Below are positions 4,507 through 57,360 of a stretch of 64,000 bases of DNA, one piece after another; the stretch's first letter is position 1; each line of letters begins with the position of its first letter. Below the pieces are notes generated by a model. The model searched no databases, was not told where the DNA came from, and was given only the letters and a program-made list of their open reading frames with translations. The translations under genes and the position numbers were made by a program. Source of the stretch: an uncultured Bacilli bacterium (GTDB lineage: Bacteria; Bacillota_I; Bacilli_A; RFN20; CAG-826). The stretch is from contig CALVYH010000002.1 of NCBI GenBank assembly GCA_944372115.1, positions 34,898 to 98,897 on the forward strand, written 5' to 3'.

Positions 4507-4854
4507 ATGGAATTTATAGAATTTAAACAATATAAAAAGAATCAAGATGAAAGATATGATAAATATGCTCCTTCATATATATTAGATGATGGTTCAATAT
4601 TTTATATTGAACCAAATTTTTATACTCAACTTATTAATTTAAAATTACATTTTGATAAAGAATTTGAAAAGTTAATCTCTTCAATAATTGAAATAACTAA
4701 AAAGAATAAAAAAGTAATTTTCACTGGTAATTATGATTCACCATTAATTAATGATAAGAAAGGATTTATTTATCGCGATATCAATGATTTATTAGCTTAT
4801 AATCATTTAACACTTGATATAAAGATTAATCCTGAAAGTGATTGGAAAGATTAA
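4507..4854 (+). CDS. hypothetical protein
   Basis: 115-aa ORF with an RBS (AAGAGGAA). No recognisable motifs. Confidence 0.4.
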   Translation: MEFIEFKQYKKNQDERYDKYAPSYILDDGSIFYIEPNFYTQLINLKLHFDKEFEKLISSIIEITKKNKKVIFTGNYDSPLINDKKGFIYRDINDLLAYNHLTLDIKINPESDWKD

Positions 4855-4913: not shown

Positions 4914-4946
4914 TAAAAAATATCCGATAATTATCGGATTTTTTTT
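4914..4946 (+). terminator. rho-independent terminator
   Basis: Stem TCCGATAA/TTATCGGA followed by a T8 run. Confidence 0.7.
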
Positions 4947-4989
4947 AAATGTAAATATTTTAAATATTTAATAATAATCTTTTTTTTGC

Positions 4990-5193
4990 TATTATACGGG
5001 CAATGTTAAAGAAGTTAATTCTTTAACGCGGGTATATCGATGCAAAAAGGTGCATCACTTTCCAGCCTGAAGCCAAAGTTTAGGGGCTACCCACTAATAT
5101 ATAATAAATATAAGATTAGTAAATAACTTATATAAAGTTTTGTTAAGTGTGGTAAGTATCAGGAAAGTAAAAGATTAACCACACTTTTCTTTA
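4990..5193 (+). promoter_or_regulatory. structured 5' leader (riboswitch-like, class unassigned) with a terminator/attenuator hairpin, ahead of the nucleoside ABC transporter operon
   Basis: Locally GC-rich island in AT-rich DNA. Hairpins at 5005-5027 and 5039-5056, flanked by a possible P1 pairing ATTATA/TATAAT. A 9-bp stem (5145-5153 with 5178-5186) followed by TTTTCTTT lies just before the AAGGAGG RBS and the ATG at 5217. Confidence 0.45.
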
Positions 5194-5216
5194 TATAAGG
5201 AGGAAAATATTAACAT

Positions 5217-6536
5217 ATGAAGAAAAATAAAATTTTTGCTACAATCGGTGCTTTAGCTGCTGTCGCAACAATTGCAACATCTTGTGGAGGAACAAATGTT
5301 GATTACGGTGATTGGGAAGGTGTCGAATTCACAGAATTAAAAGAAACAAACATCGGAACAAACGCAACTCCAGATGCAGATAAATTAGCAAATTATACTG
5401 AAGAAAATCCTTTAAAAATTGCTTTAGTTACTGACTCAGGAACATTAAACGATCACTCATTCAACGAATCTGCATGGTTAGGTGTTAACACATTTGCTAC
5501 TACAAATGGTGGTGGAACAATTGATGCATCTTCAAATACAGTTAAAACTGGTACAATTCATACTATGTATTATCAACCAGCAAACGATGCTTATGATACA
5601 CAAGGTAGATTAGCTGCTATGAGAGAAGCTGTCACAAACTTCGGTGCTAATGTTATTGTTTTACCTGGCTATTTATTCCAAGGTGCTATTAAAGAAGCTA
5701 TTAACGATTCAGCTTTTGATGATGTTTATCTCCTTGCTCTTGACTGCGTTAAAGAAGATGATAACTATCAACCATATGAATATAATGAAAGAGTTACTTC
5801 TGTCATTTATAGAGAAGAACAATGCGGCTTCTTAGCAGGATATGCTGCTGTTATGGATGGCTATGAAAAATTAGGATTTGTCGGTGGTATGGCTGTTCCA
5901 GCAGTTATTAGATATGGATCGGGGTATGTCCAAGGTGCTGCTGCTGCTGCAAAAGAAAAAGGATTAGAAAATCCAGTTTCAGTCCAATATTACTATGCAG
6001 GACAATTTGCTGCTACTCCAGAAGCAACTGAATATGCAAATACTTGGTATGCTAATGATATGGCAGAAATTATCTTCGCTTGTGGTGGTGCTGTTTATCA
6101 ATCAGTTGTTGAAGCTTCAATTCAAAACAACAATGCTCCATGGATTGGTGTTGACGTTAACCAACATGCTGATACTTCATTAAGCGAAGGTACAAGAGGC
6201 GCTTTAAAAACTTCAGCTATGAAAAACTTAACATTCGCTACACAAGTTTTATTAGCTGGATGGGTTAATGAAGGTGAAAAATGGAATGATACATTAGCTG
6301 GTGAAGTCGTTACTGTCGGTGCTGAATCAGAAATGGTCAAATTACCAACTCCTGAAGCTGATAACGATGAAGGTTGCTGGGGCTTTACAAATTATACTGT
6401 TGAAGAATATAACGAACTTTATAAATTAGTCCAAAACGGTTCAATCAAAGTTAATTCAAACTCAGATAATGAAACATTAAGTGCTAACAACTTTGGTGTT
6501 GATCCAACTTATTGTACAGTTAACTATATCGGTTAA
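5217..6536 (+). CDS. BMP-family (PnrA/Med-like) nucleoside-binding ABC transporter substrate-binding lipoprotein
   Basis: Signal peptide with lipobox IATSC. BMP-family fold-like sequence. First gene of an ABC ATPase plus two-permease operon. Confidence 0.8.
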   Translation: MKKNKIFATIGALAAVATIATSCGGTNVDYGDWEGVEFTELKETNIGTNATPDADKLANYTEENPLKIALVTDSGTLNDHSFNESAWLGVNTFATTNGGGTIDASSNTVKTGTIHTMYYQPANDAYDTQGRLAAMREAVTNFGANVIVLPGYLFQGAIKEAINDSAFDDVYLLALDCVKEDDNYQPYEYNERVTSVIYREEQCGFLAGYAAVMDGYEKLGFVGGMAVPAVIRYGSGYVQGAAAAAKEKGLENPVSVQYYYAGQFAATPEATEYANTWYANDMAEIIFACGGAVYQSVVEASIQNNNAPWIGVDVNQHADTSLSEGTRGALKTSAMKNLTFATQVLLAGWVNEGEKWNDTLAGEVVTVGAESEMVKLPTPEADNDEGCWGFTNYTVEEYNELYKLVQNGSIKVNSNSDNETLSANNFGVDPTYCTVNYIG

Positions 6537-6620
6537 TTAGTCAAATTTGATATTATGTTAGTAGGCAAAGTGAAATAAGTTTGCCTACTAACTTATTTTT
6601 TTAAATAGAGGAAAGAAATT

Positions 6621-8441
6621 ATGAAATATGAAAATGTAATTGAATTAAAACACATTAGCAAATCTTTCCCTGGCATTAAAGCTAATGATGACATTTCACT
6701 AACTCTTAGAAAAGGCGAAATTCATGCTCTTTTAGGAGAAAATGGTGCTGGTAAATCAACCTTAATGTCAATCCTCTTCGGGTTATATGAACCTGATGAA
6801 GGAGAAATCTATGTTAATGGTAAAAAAAGCGAAATTAGAAATCCTAATGATGCAACTCGTTTAGGTATTGGAATGGTTCATCAACACTTTAAACTTGTTG
6901 AGTGTTATACCGCATTACAAAATATTATTTTAGGTGCTGAGCCATGTAATAAACTTGGTTTTTTACAACCAAAAAAAGTTAGACAAACTTTAGAAGATTT
7001 ATGTAAAAAATTCAATTTCCGCGTAAATTTAGACGAAAAAATTGAAGATATGCCTGTTGGCGAACAACAAAAAGTTGAAATTTTAAAAATGCTCTATAGA
7101 GAAAACGATATTCTTATTTTTGATGAGCCAACAGCAGTTTTAACTCCACAAGAAATCGATGAACTTATGGAGTCAATGAGAGTTTTAACAAAAGAAGGAA
7201 AATCAATTTTGTTTATTTCCCATAAATTAAACGAAATTATGGCTGTTTCTGATAGAGTTACTATTTTACAACGTGGTAAATGTTTAGGTACCTTAGAAAC
7301 AAAAAAGACAAATCCTCAAGAACTTTCTAGATTAATGGTTGGTAGAGATGTTGAACTTGTTTTACAAAAAGAAGAATGCAAACCTGGAAAACCAATCTTA
7401 ACAATTAAGAATTTGAATGTATATAACAGCGAAAAGAAAAAAGAAGTTGTTCATAACGTTTCTTTTAACGTTAGAACAGGTGAAATAGTTTGTATCGCTG
7501 GTATTGAAGGCAACGGTCAAACCGATTTAGTTTATGCTCTTACTGGTTTAGAAAAAGTTAAGAGCGGCGAAATCGTTTTACACAATGTTAATGCTGAAAA
7601 ATATATTAAAAATAACAGACTTGATAAAAAGAATAATGCTTTCCAAAAAGTTTGGGAAAAAATAACCTTTGGATTAGGAATAGCATGGTATGATTTTTTA
7701 TTTGGCTGTTCATTCATTTGGTATTATTTTAAAAAATTCTTTAAAGTTTTATTTAATAAAATAGGAAATCTTTTCCGCAAAGGTAAAAAAGAATTACAAA
7801 TGGAAGAATTCCAAAAATATGTTCCTTATAAAGAGGTTAAAAATCAACCTTTAGTTGGTGATGTTCATTTAGAAAGATTATCAATTAGAGAAAGAAATGT
7901 TAGAGGTGTTTCTCATATTCCAGAAGATAGACATAAACATGGTCTTGTTCTTGATTTTAATTTAAGAGACAACCTTGTTTTAGATACTTATTTTGATCCA
8001 AGATTCCAAAAATTTGGTTTTTTGAAAAATAAAGATAAAGAAAAATACGCTAACGAATTAATTTCTAAATATGATATTAGAAGCGGTAAAGGTGCTCAAA
8101 GTATTGTTAGAAGTATGAGTGGTGGTAACCAACAAAAAGCTATTGTTGCTCGTGAACTTGATAGAGAAACCCCGCTTTTAATTGCTGTTCAACCTACACG
8201 TGGGCTTGATGTCGGTGCTATCGAAGCAATTCATAGACATATTTTAAGATCACGTGATAGTGGAAATGCTGTCTTGCTCGTTTCTTTAGAACTTGAAGAA
8301 GTTTTAAATTTAGCTGATAGAATTTTAGTTATGTATAACGGCGAAATTGTTGGACAATTCAACCCAAAAGAAACATCACCAAACGAATTAGGCCTTTATA
8401 TGAGCGGTGCTAAACGTGATGATGTTAATGCAATTTTATAG
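6621..8441 (+). CDS. nucleoside/sugar ABC transporter ATP-binding protein with two fused nucleotide-binding domains (NBDs) and an insertion of about 85 aa in NBD2
   Basis: Walker A GENGAGKST, LSGG-type signature (MSGGNQQK), two NBDs. Hydrophobic insert ITFGLGIAWYDFLFGCSFIWYYF between the NBD2 motifs. Confidence 0.8.
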   Translation: MKYENVIELKHISKSFPGIKANDDISLTLRKGEIHALLGENGAGKSTLMSILFGLYEPDEGEIYVNGKKSEIRNPNDATRLGIGMVHQHFKLVECYTALQNIILGAEPCNKLGFLQPKKVRQTLEDLCKKFNFRVNLDEKIEDMPVGEQQKVEILKMLYRENDILIFDEPTAVLTPQEIDELMESMRVLTKEGKSILFISHKLNEIMAVSDRVTILQRGKCLGTLETKKTNPQELSRLMVGRDVELVLQKEECKPGKPILTIKNLNVYNSEKKKEVVHNVSFNVRTGEIVCIAGIEGNGQTDLVYALTGLEKVKSGEIVLHNVNAEKYIKNNRLDKKNNAFQKVWEKITFGLGIAWYDFLFGCSFIWYYFKKFFKVLFNKIGNLFRKGKKELQMEEFQKYVPYKEVKNQPLVGDVHLERLSIRERNVRGVSHIPEDRHKHGLVLDFNLRDNLVLDTYFDPRFQKFGFLKNKDKEKYANELISKYDIRSGKGAQSIVRSMSGGNQQKAIVARELDRETPLLIAVQPTRGLDVGAIEAIHRHILRSRDSGNAVLLVSLELEEVLNLADRILVMYNGEIVGQFNPKETSPNELGLYMSGAKRDDVNAIL

Positions 8442-8455
8442 GAGGCGGCAAAATT

Positions 8456-9637
8456 ATGAATAAGTTTACTTCGGCTGTAAAAAAGGGATTTAGACCATTT
8501 GCTGTCTTTACTCATTTTTGCAATAAAAAACCTGGATTTAGATCTTTAATCGCAGGTATTATCTCAGTTATTATCGGTCTTTTGTGTGGAACAGTTGTAA
8601 TGTTAATTCTTTCGCCTTCACATGCAGGCGTTGGTTTATGGACTCTCATTTCAACTGGTTTTAGTACTCCAGAATTATTTGGTAGAGCTGTTTATCAAGC
8701 AATCCCAATGATTCTTTCTGGTCTTGCAATCGCATTTGCTTTTAAACTCAATTTATTTAATATCGGCGTCACCGGACAAGTTACAATTGGTGCTTTTGCT
8801 TCAATTTGTTGTGGACTTTCTGGAGCCAACTGGTTTGTTTGTATGATAGTTGGCGGTTTATGTGGCGCTGTTGCAGGTTTCATTCCTGGCTTTTTGAAAG
8901 CGAAATTTAATGTTAACGAAGTTCTTTCTGGAATTATGGTTAACTGGGTTCTTTATTATATAATTGGAATTATTGGAAGAATTGGTATTCCTTCGAGTTT
9001 CAAAGATAGAGCCACACCTTCAGAACTTATGATGATTCCTGAAGCCGCAAGAATGCCTTCACTTGGAATTCCAGGAATGACTGGTGTTAGTGTTGGTTTA
9101 ATCATAGCTTTAATTATCGTTGTTATTATTTCAATTGTTTTGAACAGAACAACATTTGGTTTTGAATTAAAAATGACTGGTAGAAATAAATTTGCTTCTA
9201 CTTATAGCGGTGTTAATCAAACAAAATCAATTATTCTTGCTTTAACAATATCTGGTGCATTGGCAGGAATTTGTGGTTATATGCTTTATGCTGAACCTGG
9301 AACACCAACCAAATTTGTTTGGGACTCATCTTCGAATACTTTACTAGCTGATGGATTTAATGGTATTTCGGTTAGCCTTATCGCACAAAATAGCCCAATT
9401 GGTTGTATTTTCTCATCATTACTTTTAACTTTAATAAGTGCTGCTCAAAACTCACTTAAAACTGTCTCAAATGGTGCATACAATATTCACTATACTGAAT
9501 TAATTAAAAATATAGTTATTTATGTTGCTGCATTATCTTCATTCTTTGTTATGTTATTAACAAGATTAAATGAAAAACACGATGGAATTCCTTATTTTAA
9601 TCGAGGAAAAGAAGTCGCTTTGAAGAAGGAGGAATAA
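8456..9637 (+). CDS. ABC transporter permease (NupB/RnsC-like)
   Basis: Polytopic hydrophobic protein in the operon with the BMP lipoprotein and the ATPase. Confidence 0.75.
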   Translation: MNKFTSAVKKGFRPFAVFTHFCNKKPGFRSLIAGIISVIIGLLCGTVVMLILSPSHAGVGLWTLISTGFSTPELFGRAVYQAIPMILSGLAIAFAFKLNLFNIGVTGQVTIGAFASICCGLSGANWFVCMIVGGLCGAVAGFIPGFLKAKFNVNEVLSGIMVNWVLYYIIGIIGRIGIPSSFKDRATPSELMMIPEAARMPSLGIPGMTGVSVGLIIALIIVVIISIVLNRTTFGFELKMTGRNKFASTYSGVNQTKSIILALTISGALAGICGYMLYAEPGTPTKFVWDSSSNTLLADGFNGISVSLIAQNSPIGCIFSSLLLTLISAAQNSLKTVSNGAYNIHYTELIKNIVIYVAALSSFFVMLLTRLNEKHDGIPYFNRGKEVALKKEE

Positions 9638-9640
9638 AGT

Positions 9641-10651
9641 ATGTCTGCATCAAGTTTTGGTTCTTTTGTTAAGTACTTAATAATGTATATTATCGGATTC
9701 ACTTTAGGTTCCTATGGTGGTCTTTTCTCAGAAAGTGCTGGCATTATTAATATTGCACTTGAAGGATCGATGGTTTTTGGCGCTTTTGCTGGGATTATTT
9801 TCCTTCAAGGTATGAATACTTGGGTAGCAGGTAGTTGGCTTGTTACTACAATTGGTGGACTTTTGATTGTTTATTTACTTGCATCAATCATTGCAATTAT
9901 TGCTGGTCTTTTATTCTCTTATTTATTATCGTTTGTTTCTATTAAACTTAAAGCTGACCAAACTGTCGTTGGCACCGCTTTAAATTCTCTTGCAGTTGCT
10001 ATTTGTACAATTTTTAATACTGCAATTACAGGAATTGACTCAACTGAAGTTGCAAACAACATTTTCTCTCAAGTTTTAAGAATTGATACTGGAATTACAT
10101 TTATTGATTATGCATTTTCAGGATTAAATATCTCTGTATTAATTGGAGTTATTGCCCTTGTTTGTTTATGGCTCGTTATGAATAAAACAAGATATGGCTT
10201 AAGATTAAGAGCTTGTGGAGAAAATCCTGCAGCTGCTGATAGTGTTGGTATTAATGTTTATAGAATGAGATATTCAGGCACTGCAATTGGTAGTGCTGCT
10301 GCAGCTTTAGCTGGTTTCGTAATTTTCTCTTGTATGCCTATTGGAACTTGGCAAATTTCTGCTCTTGGTTATGGATTCCTTGTTCTTGCTATTGAAATTT
10401 TCGGTAACTGGAAAGCAACAAATATCATTTTCTGTTCATTATTCTTTGCTTTCTTCTTTGCATTTGCTCCAACATTCACAGCTCAAATTTCAATTCATCC
10501 AGAATGGGGGTTAAACAATTCTTTATTTGGTCAAAGAGCATTCTATTATTTATTACCATATTTCCTTGCTTTATTATCTCTTGTTATTTTCTCAAAGAAA
10601 TCAAGAGCACCAAAAGCAGAAGGTATTCCTTACGATAAATCGACTCGATAA
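9641..10651 (+). CDS. ABC transporter permease (NupC/RnsD-like)
   Basis: Polytopic hydrophobic protein. Last gene of the operon. Confidence 0.75.
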   Translation: MSASSFGSFVKYLIMYIIGFTLGSYGGLFSESAGIINIALEGSMVFGAFAGIIFLQGMNTWVAGSWLVTTIGGLLIVYLLASIIAIIAGLLFSYLLSFVSIKLKADQTVVGTALNSLAVAICTIFNTAITGIDSTEVANNIFSQVLRIDTGITFIDYAFSGLNISVLIGVIALVCLWLVMNKTRYGLRLRACGENPAAADSVGINVYRMRYSGTAIGSAAAALAGFVIFSCMPIGTWQISALGYGFLVLAIEIFGNWKATNIIFCSLFFAFFFAFAPTFTAQISIHPEWGLNNSLFGQRAFYYLLPYFLALLSLVIFSKKSRAPKAEGIPYDKSTR

Positions 10652-33432: not shown

Positions 33433-34752
33433 CTAGATTTTATTAATTACACCTGAAAAAATAATGTTTTCATTACTATCTTTAATATAAAATCCGAATG
33501 TTTTATCAATTATAAAATCTTTATAGATATCTTTATATTCTATTGGACGATCACCAGTTGCTCCATCCGCTCCTATAGCTGTAACTGCAGCTCCTTCAAT
33601 TCCTTTTTTATTTACCTTTAATTTAGTTATATGAATAATAGTAGATATAAATACATTACTTTCTTTTAAGAAATCATCTTTTATAATTGATGAGAAATCT
33701 GCTAAAACTTCGTTAGTTGAATTAACAAGATTAAATCTATTTTTCATAAAATCAAGTAAATCTTCATTAAATTCACCTTCAAATTCAGGGAAAATTGTTC
33801 TAGTATGATATTTAATTTTATTTATTTCATCATAAGGATTATAACTTTCAATATTTTCAATCTCTTTAATTGTTGATTCATTAAATACTTCATCAATTGA
33901 ATATCCATCTTTTGGTTTAATAAATTGGAGGGTGTAATTTCTTCTTGTTTTAGTATAGAAAGTTTCATATTTTTCATTTTCATAAACTTGGCCTACATTA
34001 TAATAACCTTCTAAAAATTTCTTTTTACTTATTTCACCATTTTTATTTTTAAATTCAATTTCTTTGTTAAAATAAGGCAAATCATCACCGAGTTCATTCC
34101 AAATATCTTTATAATAAAGAATGTTTAATAAAACAAGCATTGTGTTTTCGCCAAAATTAAACTCGTTATTAATTAGTCCTTTAGTTTTATCTTTAACATA
34201 GTTTTGAATAGATTTATTCATTTCTTTATTTTGGTTAAAAAAATCTCCATAGTAAGAAGTTGTAAAGAAATTATCACTTAATTCTTTCAATCCTTCATCT
34301 TTAAATTCACATTTTGTATCAAGCCATAAAGAGTTAGTAAAATTAGTTACACCAAAATGATTTTCATTATTTAATAGAGAATAAAATGTAGGAATATTAT
34401 CAATTAATTCATCATATGAAGAAATATTTAAAACTTTTAATATTTCTTCTCTTGATGAATTATTTGTTGAAGCAGCTGCCATAGCTAAACCCATATACAT
34501 TGAAGCAGGGGATACAACTAAATTATCATAAGTATTTTTATAATCTTGATAAATATAAGAAGAAAATTTTGAAGCAAATGACAAAGTTGATTCTTCAAAA
34601 GTTTGATATGATTCACTATAAATATAATCGCCATCTAATTTAACTTTATCTTTGCTTTCATAAATTAAAGTTGCGACATTACTATTCATACAAGAAGTTA
34701 AAGAAAAAGGAATAATCGCAAAAGAAAATAAAAATTTAACTATATTTTTCAT
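33433..34752 (-). CDS. serpin-family protease inhibitor lipoprotein
   Basis: Signal peptide with lipobox LTSC. Serpin N-terminal helix motif NLVVSPASMYMGLAMAAASTNNSSREEIL. Hinge and reactive-centre-loop region EGAAVTAIGADGATGDRP. C-terminal F..D.PF...I-type motif FIIDKTFGFYIKDSNENIIFSGVI. Confidence 0.75.
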   Translation of the reverse strand: MKNIVKFLFSFAIIPFSLTSCMNSNVATLIYESKDKVKLDGDYIYSESYQTFEESTLSFASKFSSYIYQDYKNTYDNLVVSPASMYMGLAMAAASTNNSSREEILKVLNISSYDELIDNIPTFYSLLNNENHFGVTNFTNSLWLDTKCEFKDEGLKELSDNFFTTSYYGDFFNQNKEMNKSIQNYVKDKTKGLINNEFNFGENTMLVLLNILYYKDIWNELGDDLPYFNKEIEFKNKNGEISKKKFLEGYYNVGQVYENEKYETFYTKTRRNYTLQFIKPKDGYSIDEVFNESTIKEIENIESYNPYDEINKIKYHTRTIFPEFEGEFNEDLLDFMKNRFNLVNSTNEVLADFSSIIKDDFLKESNVFISTIIHITKLKVNKKGIEGAAVTAIGADGATGDRPIEYKDIYKDFIIDKTFGFYIKDSNENIIFSGVINKI

Positions 34753-56535: not shown

Positions 56536-56538
56536 TAA

Positions 56539-56707
56539 TTGCTTCAGGGTGTTGTGAAATTCAAAACTGGTGGTATACCCCACGAGCTAATTTATTAGCA
56601 TGAACTAGTGAAATTCTAGTGGCAACAGTAAAGTCTGGATGAAAGAAAGCATTTATATTATTTTTAAATCAACTTTTTAAAATAGCCCTTGAAGTGAAAG
56701 GGTTATT
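56539..56707 (+). ncRNA. FMN riboswitch (RFN element) with a terminator expression platform
   Basis: Matches conserved RFN blocks: AGGGTG..GTGAAATTC..ACTGGTGGTA..CCCACGAGC...AGTGAAATTC..GGCAACAGTAAAGTCTGGATGAAAGAAAGCA. P1 pairing TGCTTC/GAAAGCA. Downstream hairpin TAGCCCTT/AAGGGTTA plus T7 sequesters the AAAGGG RBS. Confidence 0.85.
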
Positions 56708-56712
56708 TTTTT

Positions 56713-57360
56713 ATGAAAATTAAAAAATCTTTACTTCTAATTGCTCGTGTTGCTATTTTTGGAGCTTTAGCCATAATTCTTTATATGGTGCCCGGTTTAC
56801 AATTTCCTATTTTTCCAGGTTTAACGTTTTTAAAAATACATTTTGATGAAATCCCGGTTTTATTTGCTTCCCTTGCTTATGGGCCTTTAACTGGGAGTTT
56901 AATTATTTTTTTAAAGGGAATATTTAAACTTATTCAAGATATTGGTGAAACAGGAGGAATCGGAGTAATAGCAGATATAATTTATGGTCTTGCTTTTATA
57001 CTCCCTGCTGCTTTTATTTATAAATATCATAAAGGTTTTAAAATGGGTTTAGTTGCAATATTTGTTGGAATGCTAGTTAATTTAATATTTAGTGCATTTA
57101 TTGGATATTATCTTATTTATCCTTTATATGGTTTTTATTTTAATCCAAGTGCTAGTAATTATAATGAAGCGATGGAAACAGTCTTTACACTTTTTAAAGC
57201 AGCCGATTCTTCTTTAACTTCTTGGAAAGATCCAAAAATATTATTTGAATTTCTTCTTCCATTTAACTTAATTAAAAACGCCGTAATTGTGGTATTTACT
57301 ATTTTGGTTTATAAGCCATTATCTTTACTTGTTAAAAAAGAAGAAAATAAAGAAAAATAA
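56713..57360 (+). CDS. ribU: ECF transporter S component, probably the riboflavin transporter RibU
   Basis: 215-aa, 6-TM ECF S-component-like protein directly downstream of the FMN riboswitch. Confidence 0.7.
   Translation: MKIKKSLLLIARVAIFGALAIILYMVPGLQFPIFPGLTFLKIHFDEIPVLFASLAYGPLTGSLIIFLKGIFKLIQDIGETGGIGVIADIIYGLAFILPAAFIYKYHKGFKMGLVAIFVGMLVNLIFSAFIGYYLIYPLYGFYFNPSASNYNEAMETVFTLFKAADSSLTSWKDPKILFEFLLPFNLIKNAVIVVFTILVYKPLSLLVKKEENKEK

Follow-up and report, generated by a model that had tools for sequence, protein, structure and literature searches.

A candidate riboswitch of the purine fold, divergent from the described classes, ahead of a nucleoside importer operon in an uncultured Bacilli bacterium

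We analyzed a 64,000-nt stretch of contig CALVYH010000002.1 from an uncultured Bacilli bacterium (assembly GCA_944372115.1, positions 34,898 to 98,897; hereafter, the window). Our subject is the leader of an operon for a BMP/PnrA-type ATP-binding cassette (ABC) importer of nucleosides, and we propose that this leader contains a riboswitch of the purine fold with an altered binding pocket. Positions are those of the window, and all features lie on its plus strand unless noted. The operon (5217..10651) begins with an open reading frame (ORF) for a BMP/PnrA-like substrate-binding lipoprotein (5217-6536; Pfam Bmp, 1.5e-27), whose N-terminus, MKKNKIFATIGALAAVATIATSCGG, contains a lipobox, as judged from the sequence and from the near-identical N-termini of its homologs. 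Next come a double ABC ATPase (6621-8441; two matches to Pfam ABC_tran) and two permeases (8456-9637 and 9641-10651; two matches to BPD_transp_2). The ribosome-binding site AAGGAGG (5197-5203) and the start codon (5217-5219) of the BMP gene together span 5197..5219. On the 5' side of the leader lie a gene for a metallo-beta-lactamase-fold protein, a gene for a SPOUT methyltransferase, and, directly upstream, an ORF of 115 amino acids (4507-4854; no Pfam match) with a clean terminator (a stem at 4922-4939 and a T-run) after it. Among the ORFs that were scanned, the operon has no purine-metabolism neighbors that would hint at a ligand. The locus is identical on CASEKC010000002.1, and the BMP gene of uncultured Mollicutes bacterium UMGS238 is 73% identical.

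The leader is the interval of about 220 nt from the terminator of the preceding gene to the start of the BMP gene at 5217. An earlier note on this DNA had described a GC-rich leader in this interval, with hairpins at 5005-5027 and 5039-5056 and with a 9-bp stem (AAGTGTGGT/ACCACACTT) followed by TTTTCTTT ahead of the ribosome-binding site, and we found all of these features. The GC content is 41% at 5000-5099, as compared to 12-24% for the intergenic DNA on either side and 27.9% across the window. The leader's predicted folding energy is -56.7 kcal/mol, while shuffled sequences give -40.05 +/- 4.05 kcal/mol (z = -4.11), and none of 200 shuffles was as stable.

We compared the leader with the regions surrounding BMP orthologs in genomes and assemblies (a BMP protein search of the genome collection gave 6 loci). 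In ten sister lineages, a canonical guanine-type aptamer stands before the orthologous BMP/PnrA ABC operon. At loci L003-L006, RF00167 matches at 41-53 bits (its gathering score is 37), in the same place before the BMP gene and with the guanine-type J3/1 AC. L007, L010, L011, L019, L034, and L035 are also canonical, with 64-96 bits on R1, a covariance model that we built from the canonical sister aptamers. The window's leader aligns with R1 across all 70 model positions (21 bits, E = 0.08 in 113 kb). Rfam 15 has no match to this leader at its gathering scores, nor when the threshold is relaxed to E <= 10 for 411 nt or for the 94-nt aptamer alone, and the variant loci L002, L009, L012, L014, and L017 likewise lack Rfam matches. 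T-box, PyrR, ykkC/PRPP, ZTP, and other leader families did not appear in the Rfam searches at three sensitivities, and we dropped them. The core substitutions described below hide the variant from the consensus and from Rfam. The earlier note's suggestion of a riboswitch or attenuator before a nucleoside importer has thus gained support from RF00167 at the same spot in the sisters, from the full-length alignment to R1, and from a terminator/antiterminator platform. The note had also considered the element to be divergent or unclassified. The lack of any Rfam match agrees with this, but the element does belong to the purine fold, clan CL00123 in Rfam, which the note could not match. Of the checks that it had proposed, the Rfam search found nothing, while the comparison of orthologous leaders uncovered a conserved aptamer with compensatory changes between lineages.

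The variant aptamer (5030..5092) was placed by alignment to R1 and to the RF00167 matches in L003-L006, and we use the numbering of the xpt aptamer for its core. P1 is GGGUA (5030-5034) with UACCC (5088-5092). J1/2 is UAU (5035-5037), corresponding to U22, A23, and U24. P2 pairs GAUGCA (5039-5044) with UGCAUC (5051-5056), with C5038 and A5057 unpaired at its base, and is capped by L2, AAAAGG (5045-5050). J2/3 is CUUUCCAG (5058-5065) and includes C46, C51 (5063), A52, and G53 (5065). P3 pairs CCUGAA (5066-5071) with UUUAGG (5079-5084) around L3, GCCAAAG (5072-5078), and J3/1 is GGC (5085-5087), with C5087 as the equivalent of C74. In the alignment to the RF00167 matches, the pyrimidine-purine pair 22-52 of the purine fold corresponds to U5035 and A5064, and its pyrimidines at 51 and 74 correspond to C5063 and C5087. 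The G46-C53 Watson-Crick pair of the fold is replaced by C5058...G5065, which retains the potential to pair. The window, L012, L014, and L017 all retain GG in L2 and CC in L3, so that the tertiary contact between the loops could form. The aptamer is single-copy within the window; a weak partial match to R1 at 4712-4755, inside the 115-aa ORF (14.4 bits, E = 2.5), was judged to be due to chance.

Plain MAFFT of the variant and canonical aptamers mis-registers J1/2, P2, and J3/1, so we used an alignment to the covariance model. RNAalifold on this joint alignment gives the same P1, P2, and P3. Also, 97% of its pair cells are standard pairs, a share that falls to 30-43% if the partners are offset by 1-3 columns, and both sides have changed in 10 pairs, although these figures lean toward the structure because the alignment was fitted to the model. 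The covariance-model alignment misplaces a 1-nt deletion in J2/3 of L012, so we read positions 46 and 53 directly from the sequences.

The canonical sister aptamers have GUCUCUAC or GUUUCUAC as J2/3 and AC as J3/1. Relative to these, the core of the window's aptamer has G46 changed to C and C53 changed to G (that is, the pair is inverted), U51 changed to C, and A73 changed to G, along with one extra G at the border of P3 and J3/1 and, at the base of P2, a C opposed to an A. Positions 46 and 53 are C...G in all three variant lineages and G...C in 10/10 canonical lineages.

The variant is also found in a second lineage (L012/13, L014/15, and L017/L033), whose BMP proteins are 67-68% identical to the window's and whose upstream gene is different (phosphoribosyl pyrophosphate, or PRPP, synthetase). 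The window and L012 share 88.9% identity in the aptamer, compared to 70.6% in the first 300 nt of coding sequence, 63% in the 5' hairpin P0 (described below), and 54.7% in the expression platform. The differences within the aptamer lie in its stems and are compensatory: in P1, a G-C pair becomes A-U, and in P2, an A-U pair becomes G-C and a G-C pair becomes U-A. The window and the L012 lineage share the block CCAGCCUGAAGCCAAAGUUUAGGGGCUACC without any change. J2/3 of L012 is shorter by one U, and its downstream complement has a matching deletion of one A. From these comparisons of sequences, we see good evidence that this is a functional, selected RNA. A search of viral contigs with a flexible core pattern gave 13 matches, all GC-rich chance matches, and so no further members; a more specific pattern with free inner P3 pairs hit one locus among metagenome contigs, which was L033, identical to L017.

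L009 shares the order of Lactamase_B, SPOUT, small ORF, and BMP genes with the window (the small ORF there is 113 amino acids, and its BMP is 71% identical). At L009:1020-1200, we noticed a more diverged, purine-like three-stem junction with UUAGGUA/UGCCUAA as P1, CCUCAUAG as J2/3, AC(U) as J3/1, and an L3 that lacks CC. This junction has no match in R1 or Rfam. It may represent another variant class, or else an aptamer that is decaying.

A consensus scan placed a promoter-like site at 4968..4995, with a score of 9/12. It has the -35 box TTAATA (4968-4973), a 16-nt spacer, and an extended -10 box TGcTATTAT (4987-4995) with TG before the -10, and transcription would start near 5002. L012 (TTTACA-17-TATATT) and L009 (TTGAAT-18-TATTAT) also have promoter-like sites, ending 4-10 nt ahead of the first hairpin. 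L002 keeps TGnTATTAT but has ACTTGC instead of ACGGGC between the -10 box and that hairpin. The first hairpin, P0, has 9 bp (GUUAAAGAA/UUCUUUAAC, 5005..5027, -7.1 kcal/mol) and lies 2 nt 5' of P1. Every lineage, including the canonical ones, has a hairpin at this place with a different sequence (GUAAGAA/UUCUUAC in L012, AUGCAA/UUGCAU in L009, and AAAUC/GAUUU in the canonical leaders). P0 is outside of the aptamer and would form the extreme 5' end of the transcript, where it may stabilize or protect the end or may insulate P1.

Downstream of the aptamer is a predicted intrinsic terminator (5145..5195). Its 9-bp stem (5145-5153 with 5178-5186) has 5 G-C pairs and a 24-nt loop, the U-tract begins at 5185 (the run noted above covers 5185-5192), and the stem-loop has a folding energy of -10.9 kcal/mol. 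This is the expected form for such terminators, with G+C in the stem, the U-tract UUUUCUUU directly 3', and a gene downstream. The stem can be extended by pairing CUUAUAUAAAG (5127-5137) with CUUUAUAUAAG (5189-5199), which brings the energy to -21.1 kcal/mol. A simple scan for terminators missed 5145-5195 because its loop exceeds 8 nt. An equivalent terminator is present in L009, and L016, whose contig is cut, keeps the 3' half of one. Between aptamer and terminator, the full-length fold has an AU-rich spacer hairpin (5093..5120), whose sequence is not conserved in L012 or L009; its role might be to allow time for ligand binding during transcription.

The terminator competes with a predicted antiterminator made of two nested helices. 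The outer strand, ACUUUCC (5057..5063; A5057 and part of J2/3), pairs with GGAAAGU (5162-5168) in the loop of the terminator. The inner strand, UACCCACUAAUA (5088..5099; the 3' strand of P1 and the next 7 nt), pairs with UGUUAAGUGUGGUA (5141-5154), which includes the 5' strand of the terminator, with two 1-nt bulges. If the transcript is cut at 5177, just before the 3' strand of the terminator, then the minimum-energy fold is this nested antiterminator: P2 and P3 persist, while P1 and the junction are broken. Cut transcripts of L001 and L002 fold in the same way. L001 has AC instead of UA at 5095-5096 and has a shifted register, CCACAC/GUGUGG, that is improved by both substitutions. The full-length leader folds into the aptamer and the terminator. 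When 12 nt of the coding sequence are included, 3.6 kcal/mol separates the two states (-54.8 versus -51.2), a modeled gap that the energy of ligand binding could be enough to tip.

The complement of J2/3 is retained in each variant lineage. In the window, ACUUUCC/GGAAAGU is a perfect match of 7 nt, and 56/2000 shuffles reach the same. In L012, the complement is CACUUCC/GGAAGUG (31/2000 shuffles). In L009, a segment of P2' and J2-3, CACCUCAU, perfectly complements the 5' strand of the terminator, AUGAGGUG, over 8 nt (7/2000 shuffles). The complement persists while its sequence differs in each lineage, and the two strands co-vary.

We also noticed other pairings in these leaders. In the L012 lineage (L012:1018-1200, L014:1027-1200, and L017:1030-1200), the 5' strand of P1 together with J1/2 (GGUAUAU) complements AUAUGCC, which is right before a U-tract, and the box GGAAGUG, which resembles a Shine-Dalgarno sequence, complements J2/3. 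In the window, the U-tract UUUUCUUUAUAU (5185-5196) complements the region of the start codon, AUAUGAAGAAAA (5214-5225), which would put the ribosome-binding site in a hairpin loop. The minimum-energy folds of four leaders (window, L012, L014, and L005) contain this hairpin, which may be an added translational layer or a by-product of the U-tract and of Lys codons. At canonical loci (L005:1322-1500, and also L003, L006, L007, L010, and L019), the aptamer is enclosed by a long-range pairing of the 5' leader, AUAAAUC..UGGGA, with UUUCCUA..GGUUUAU farther downstream, and J2/3 pairs with GUGGAGA, with wobbles. This is an unusual expression platform.

We propose that the leader is a terminating riboswitch of the purine three-stem-junction fold, a rare variant that lies outside of the published classes and of Rfam, and we give this proposal, including OFF control but leaving the ligand aside, a probability of roughly 0.6. 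That the element is a functional purine-family riboswitch is very likely; that it acts by termination as an OFF switch is probable. Its platform has the layout of a classic OFF switch. Our analysis shows the homology of the fold, its conservation, the compensatory changes, the alternative pairings, and the gene context, and we infer the start of the transcript, the ligand, the ligand-dependent switching, and its sign. Transcription would start near 5002. After P0, the aptamer at 5030-5092 would fold, with P1, P2, P3, and the GG/CC contact of L2 and L3, to give a pocket with the equivalents of U22, C51, and C74 instead of U22, U51, and C74. The ligand would be a guanine nucleoside, which would be a substrate of the importer that is being controlled. 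With ligand bound, P1 and J2/3 would be locked, the stem 5145-5153/5178-5186 would form ahead of the U-tract, and transcription would stop before the BMP/ABC operon. Without ligand, 5057-5063 would pair with GGAAAGU, the P1 3' strand (5088-5099) would pair with the 5' strand of the terminator, and the operon would be transcribed.

The leading candidate for the ligand is guanosine and/or 2'-deoxyguanosine (2'-dG), which we suggest tentatively because of C51, the C74 equivalent, and the only associated genes, which encode a nucleoside importer. In the solved aptamers of the 2'-dG-I and 2'-dG-II classes, C at 51 admits a sugar on N9, and C at 51 (58 in 2'-dG-I) is critical for selecting the nucleoside over the nucleobase (PMC6847200, PMC8872408). 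The U51C mutant of xpt gains binding of 2'-dG, and C51U in env1 reduces it 18-fold (PMC6847200, PMC8872408). Combining U51C in xpt with the J3/1 insertion nearly abolishes binding of hypoxanthine and favors 2'-dG (PMC6847200). The C74 equivalent predicts a ligand with a guanine-type Watson-Crick face. It is possible, if somewhat short of probable, that this is a new class on the guanine scaffold, whose ligand has changed to a guanine nucleoside or another purine derivative.

Several points weigh against our proposal. The 24-nt loop of the terminator is unusually large, and in the L012/L014/L017 lineage we found no recognizable intrinsic terminator; the alternative pairings of that lineage could give the opposite sign of control. 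The variant aptamers score just 19-21 bits on R1 (19-20 bits for L012, L014, and L017), which is a model of their own canonical relatives, and have nothing on Rfam. The extra G could be the third base of J3/1 or a bulge in P3, as both fit the sequence, and RNAfold alone favors another register of P3 that consumes the putative C74. The letters of the pocket do not fix the ligand, because 2'-dG-III has U51 and guanine-II tolerates insertions (PMC9295807). The P3-L3-J3/1 block is invariant and hence uninformative about pairing. Finally, the exact variant occurs in only two independent lineages, plus the more diverged form in L009, so covariation within the class amounts to a handful of events.

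We considered that the aptamer might still sense guanine itself, as a tolerated variant of guanine-I that represses the import of purine nucleosides by feedback, as in the sisters. It shares its gene and its position with the canonical guanine-type aptamers and retains the equivalents of U22, A52, and C74. Furthermore, the insertions of guanine-II are compatible with tight binding of guanine, and 2'-dG-III binds guanine too (PMC9295807). However, U51, which contacts N3 and N9 of guanine, is replaced by C in every variant copy, and the xpt double mutant described above hardly binds hypoxanthine (PMC6847200). Also, the same core changes are fixed in two lineages whose BMP proteins are 67% identical, which suggests selection for a new pocket rather than drift. 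We therefore view a guanine sensor as unlikely. A sensor for another purine derivative with a guanine-like or hypoxanthine-like face, such as inosine, deoxyinosine, xanthosine, or a modified base, seems improbable. BMP/PnrA-type transporters are generally considered to accept a broad range of purine nucleosides, which fits with this idea, and the L012 lineage lacks one U of J2/3, which is the type of change that makes 8-oxoguanine (8-oxoG) aptamers. The combination of C46-G53, G instead of A73, and the extra G is not in any described class (PMC6847200, PMC12282948, PMC9295807, PMC10556655), so the geometry of the pocket may differ from that of 2'-dG-II. But the sole gene association is with the nucleoside importer, and nothing in it points to an unusual ligand; and the C74 equivalent argues for a G-type or hypoxanthine-type face.

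The leader might instead contain a decayed aptamer that binds nothing, and act as a constitutive attenuator, as an attenuator that depends on a protein or a nucleoside triphosphate, or as a stabilizing 5' untranslated region. In favor of this, Rfam finds nothing, the closest syntenic relative (L009) has a form that looks more eroded, with no CC in L3 and no match to R1, and the minimum-energy structure of the full-length leader holds the terminator without any ligand. Yet conservation across the locus is highest in the aptamer, above even the coding sequence; its stems have compensatory changes; the GG/CC loop contact is retained; and J2/3 co-varies with its downstream complement, including the matched 1-nt deletion. 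Decay seems quite improbable to us. The earlier note had imagined an unclassified riboswitch in which ATTATA (4991-4996) and TATAAT (about 5101-5106) form a P1 around two hairpins. These hexamers are complementary, but they are AT-only, which makes complementarity trivial in DNA with 28% GC; L012 and L009 have no such helix; and homology identifies a different P1, GGGUA/UACCC, which does not enclose the first hairpin. Furthermore, ATTATA overlaps the extended -10 box of the promoter-like site, whose position is conserved in three lineages (the window, L012, and L009), so this arm is most likely not transcribed. We consider that version of P1 to be very improbable.

Elsewhere in the window, a flavin mononucleotide (FMN) riboswitch (RF00050, 91.2 bits, 56536-56655) lies directly 5' of an ORF for an energy-coupling factor (ECF) transporter substrate component (56713-57360), which is an ordinary arrangement for riboflavin uptake. 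On the minus strand, an ORF of 439 amino acids (33433-34752) has a full-length serpin domain (Pfam Serpin, 9.8e-35); bacterial serpins are uncommon.

If this is a new class with a changed ligand, it would be the first with an inverted form of the "universal" G46-C53 junction pair, taking the place of the canonical guanine aptamers that sister species have at the orthologous locus. It would be a natural and datable change of ligand, from a base to a transported nucleoside, with the target operon kept. If the element senses a nucleoside, then it would provide direct feedback by substrate on a BMP/PnrA-type importer, and the organisms concerned probably rely on purine salvage. Previous re-tunings of the guanine scaffold (adenine, three 2'-dG classes, xanthine-II, guanine-II, and 8-oxoG) taught how a few changes in the junction re-specify the pocket; our candidate adds the combination of C51, an inverted 46-53 pair, G73, and an extra G, which is absent from the class descriptions that we compared. 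Because canonical and variant aptamers precede the same operon in close relatives, they form a comparative system for the co-evolution of specificity and platform. Since the variant is invisible to Rfam, standard annotation of gut Mollicutes-like genomes would miss it. We consider it a good candidate for a new specificity class.

Among the known classes, guanine-I riboswitches have U22, U51, and C74 (PMC6847200, PMC12282948), while the adenine riboswitch has U74 (PMC12282948). The window's element shares its fold, position, operon, 5' hairpin, and downstream complement of J2/3 with guanine-I (RF00167, of the B. subtilis xpt type, including the sister copies), and feedback repression of purine uptake is likely in both. 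Unlike guanine-I, with its two-nucleotide J3/1 (A73 and C74), the window has C5063 at position 51 and GGC as J3/1, as well as C46-G53, G73, the extra G, and C-A at the base of P2. It scores 21 bits on R1 versus 64-96 bits, and does not reach the gathering score of RF00167.

In 2'-dG-I, the corresponding residues are C31, C58, and C80, a C-G pair replaces U22-A52, and L3 has 4 nt (PMC12282948, PMC6847200). The window has C at the equivalents of C58 and C80 in common with the 2'-dG-I aptamer of Mesoplasma florum (I-A, 3SKI). That riboswitch also shares with the window a low-GC Mollicutes-type host and OFF control by transcription termination (predicted in the window's case). It differs in having C31-G59 instead of U22-A52, a 4-nt L3 with a remodeled contact, a 2-nt J3/1, and a ribonucleotide reductase target (PMC12282948); the window retains U5035-A5064 and has an L3 of 7 nt.

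Other variants of the guanine scaffold are narrowly distributed, as the window's element is, have altered junction nucleotides, and are hidden from or within the parent family. 2'-dG-III has U at 51, binds nucleosides as well as guanine, is associated exclusively with purine nucleoside hydrolase genes, and is an ON switch (PMC9295807), whereas the window has C51, a BMP ABC operon, and a platform that is predicted to be of the OFF type. Xanthine-II has U51G and guanine-II keeps U51, with an insertion of 1-2 nt in J2-3 and an insertion in J3-1, and guanine-II still binds guanine tightly (PMC9295807). The window's J2/3 has the guanine-I length of 8 nt (in L012 it has 7), and C at 51. The 8-oxoG riboswitch has the guanine-I core with only U47 deleted and is found with 8-oxoG deaminase genes (PMC10556655). 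The window keeps three U's at 47-49; L012 lacks one of these, but its C51, inverted 46-53 pair, and BMP gene context are unlike 8-oxoG. C51 together with an inverted 46-53 pair does not occur in xanthine-II, guanine-II, 2'-dG-III, or 8-oxoG, and these four have no link to BMP ABC importers. Within the literature that we searched from 2023 on, no further class came up. A related group might be among the variants of Weinberg et al. 2017, who reportedly tabulated seven guanine variant groups.

The closest comparison is to 2'-dG-II. No Rfam 15 family, including any 2'-dG-II model therein, matches the window's element. The 2'-dG-II riboswitches are the UCC variant group, with U22, C51, and C74, as in the env1 structure 6P2H (PMC6847200). 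They have a two-nucleotide insertion in J3/1, in which an invariant U comes first and pairs with A24, and the junction-proximal pair of P1 is G21-C79 (PMC6847200). They keep G46-C53, which has been called universally conserved, and A77, the equivalent of A73 (PMC6847200). The window resembles 2'-dG-II in its three-stem junction, its first shell (U5035, C5063, and C5087), its lengthened J3/1, U22-A52, the GG/CC loop contact, and the predicted guanine-nucleoside ligand. It differs from 2'-dG-II in having one extra G and no U in J3/1, U5037 at position 24, A5034-U5088 as the junction-proximal pair of P1, G at 73, and the inverted C46-G53. Because both of the features that define 2'-dG-II are missing and the 46-53 pair is inverted, we do not file the element under that class. 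Judging from its sequence, it is a new variant, and we predict that it works like 2'-dG-II.

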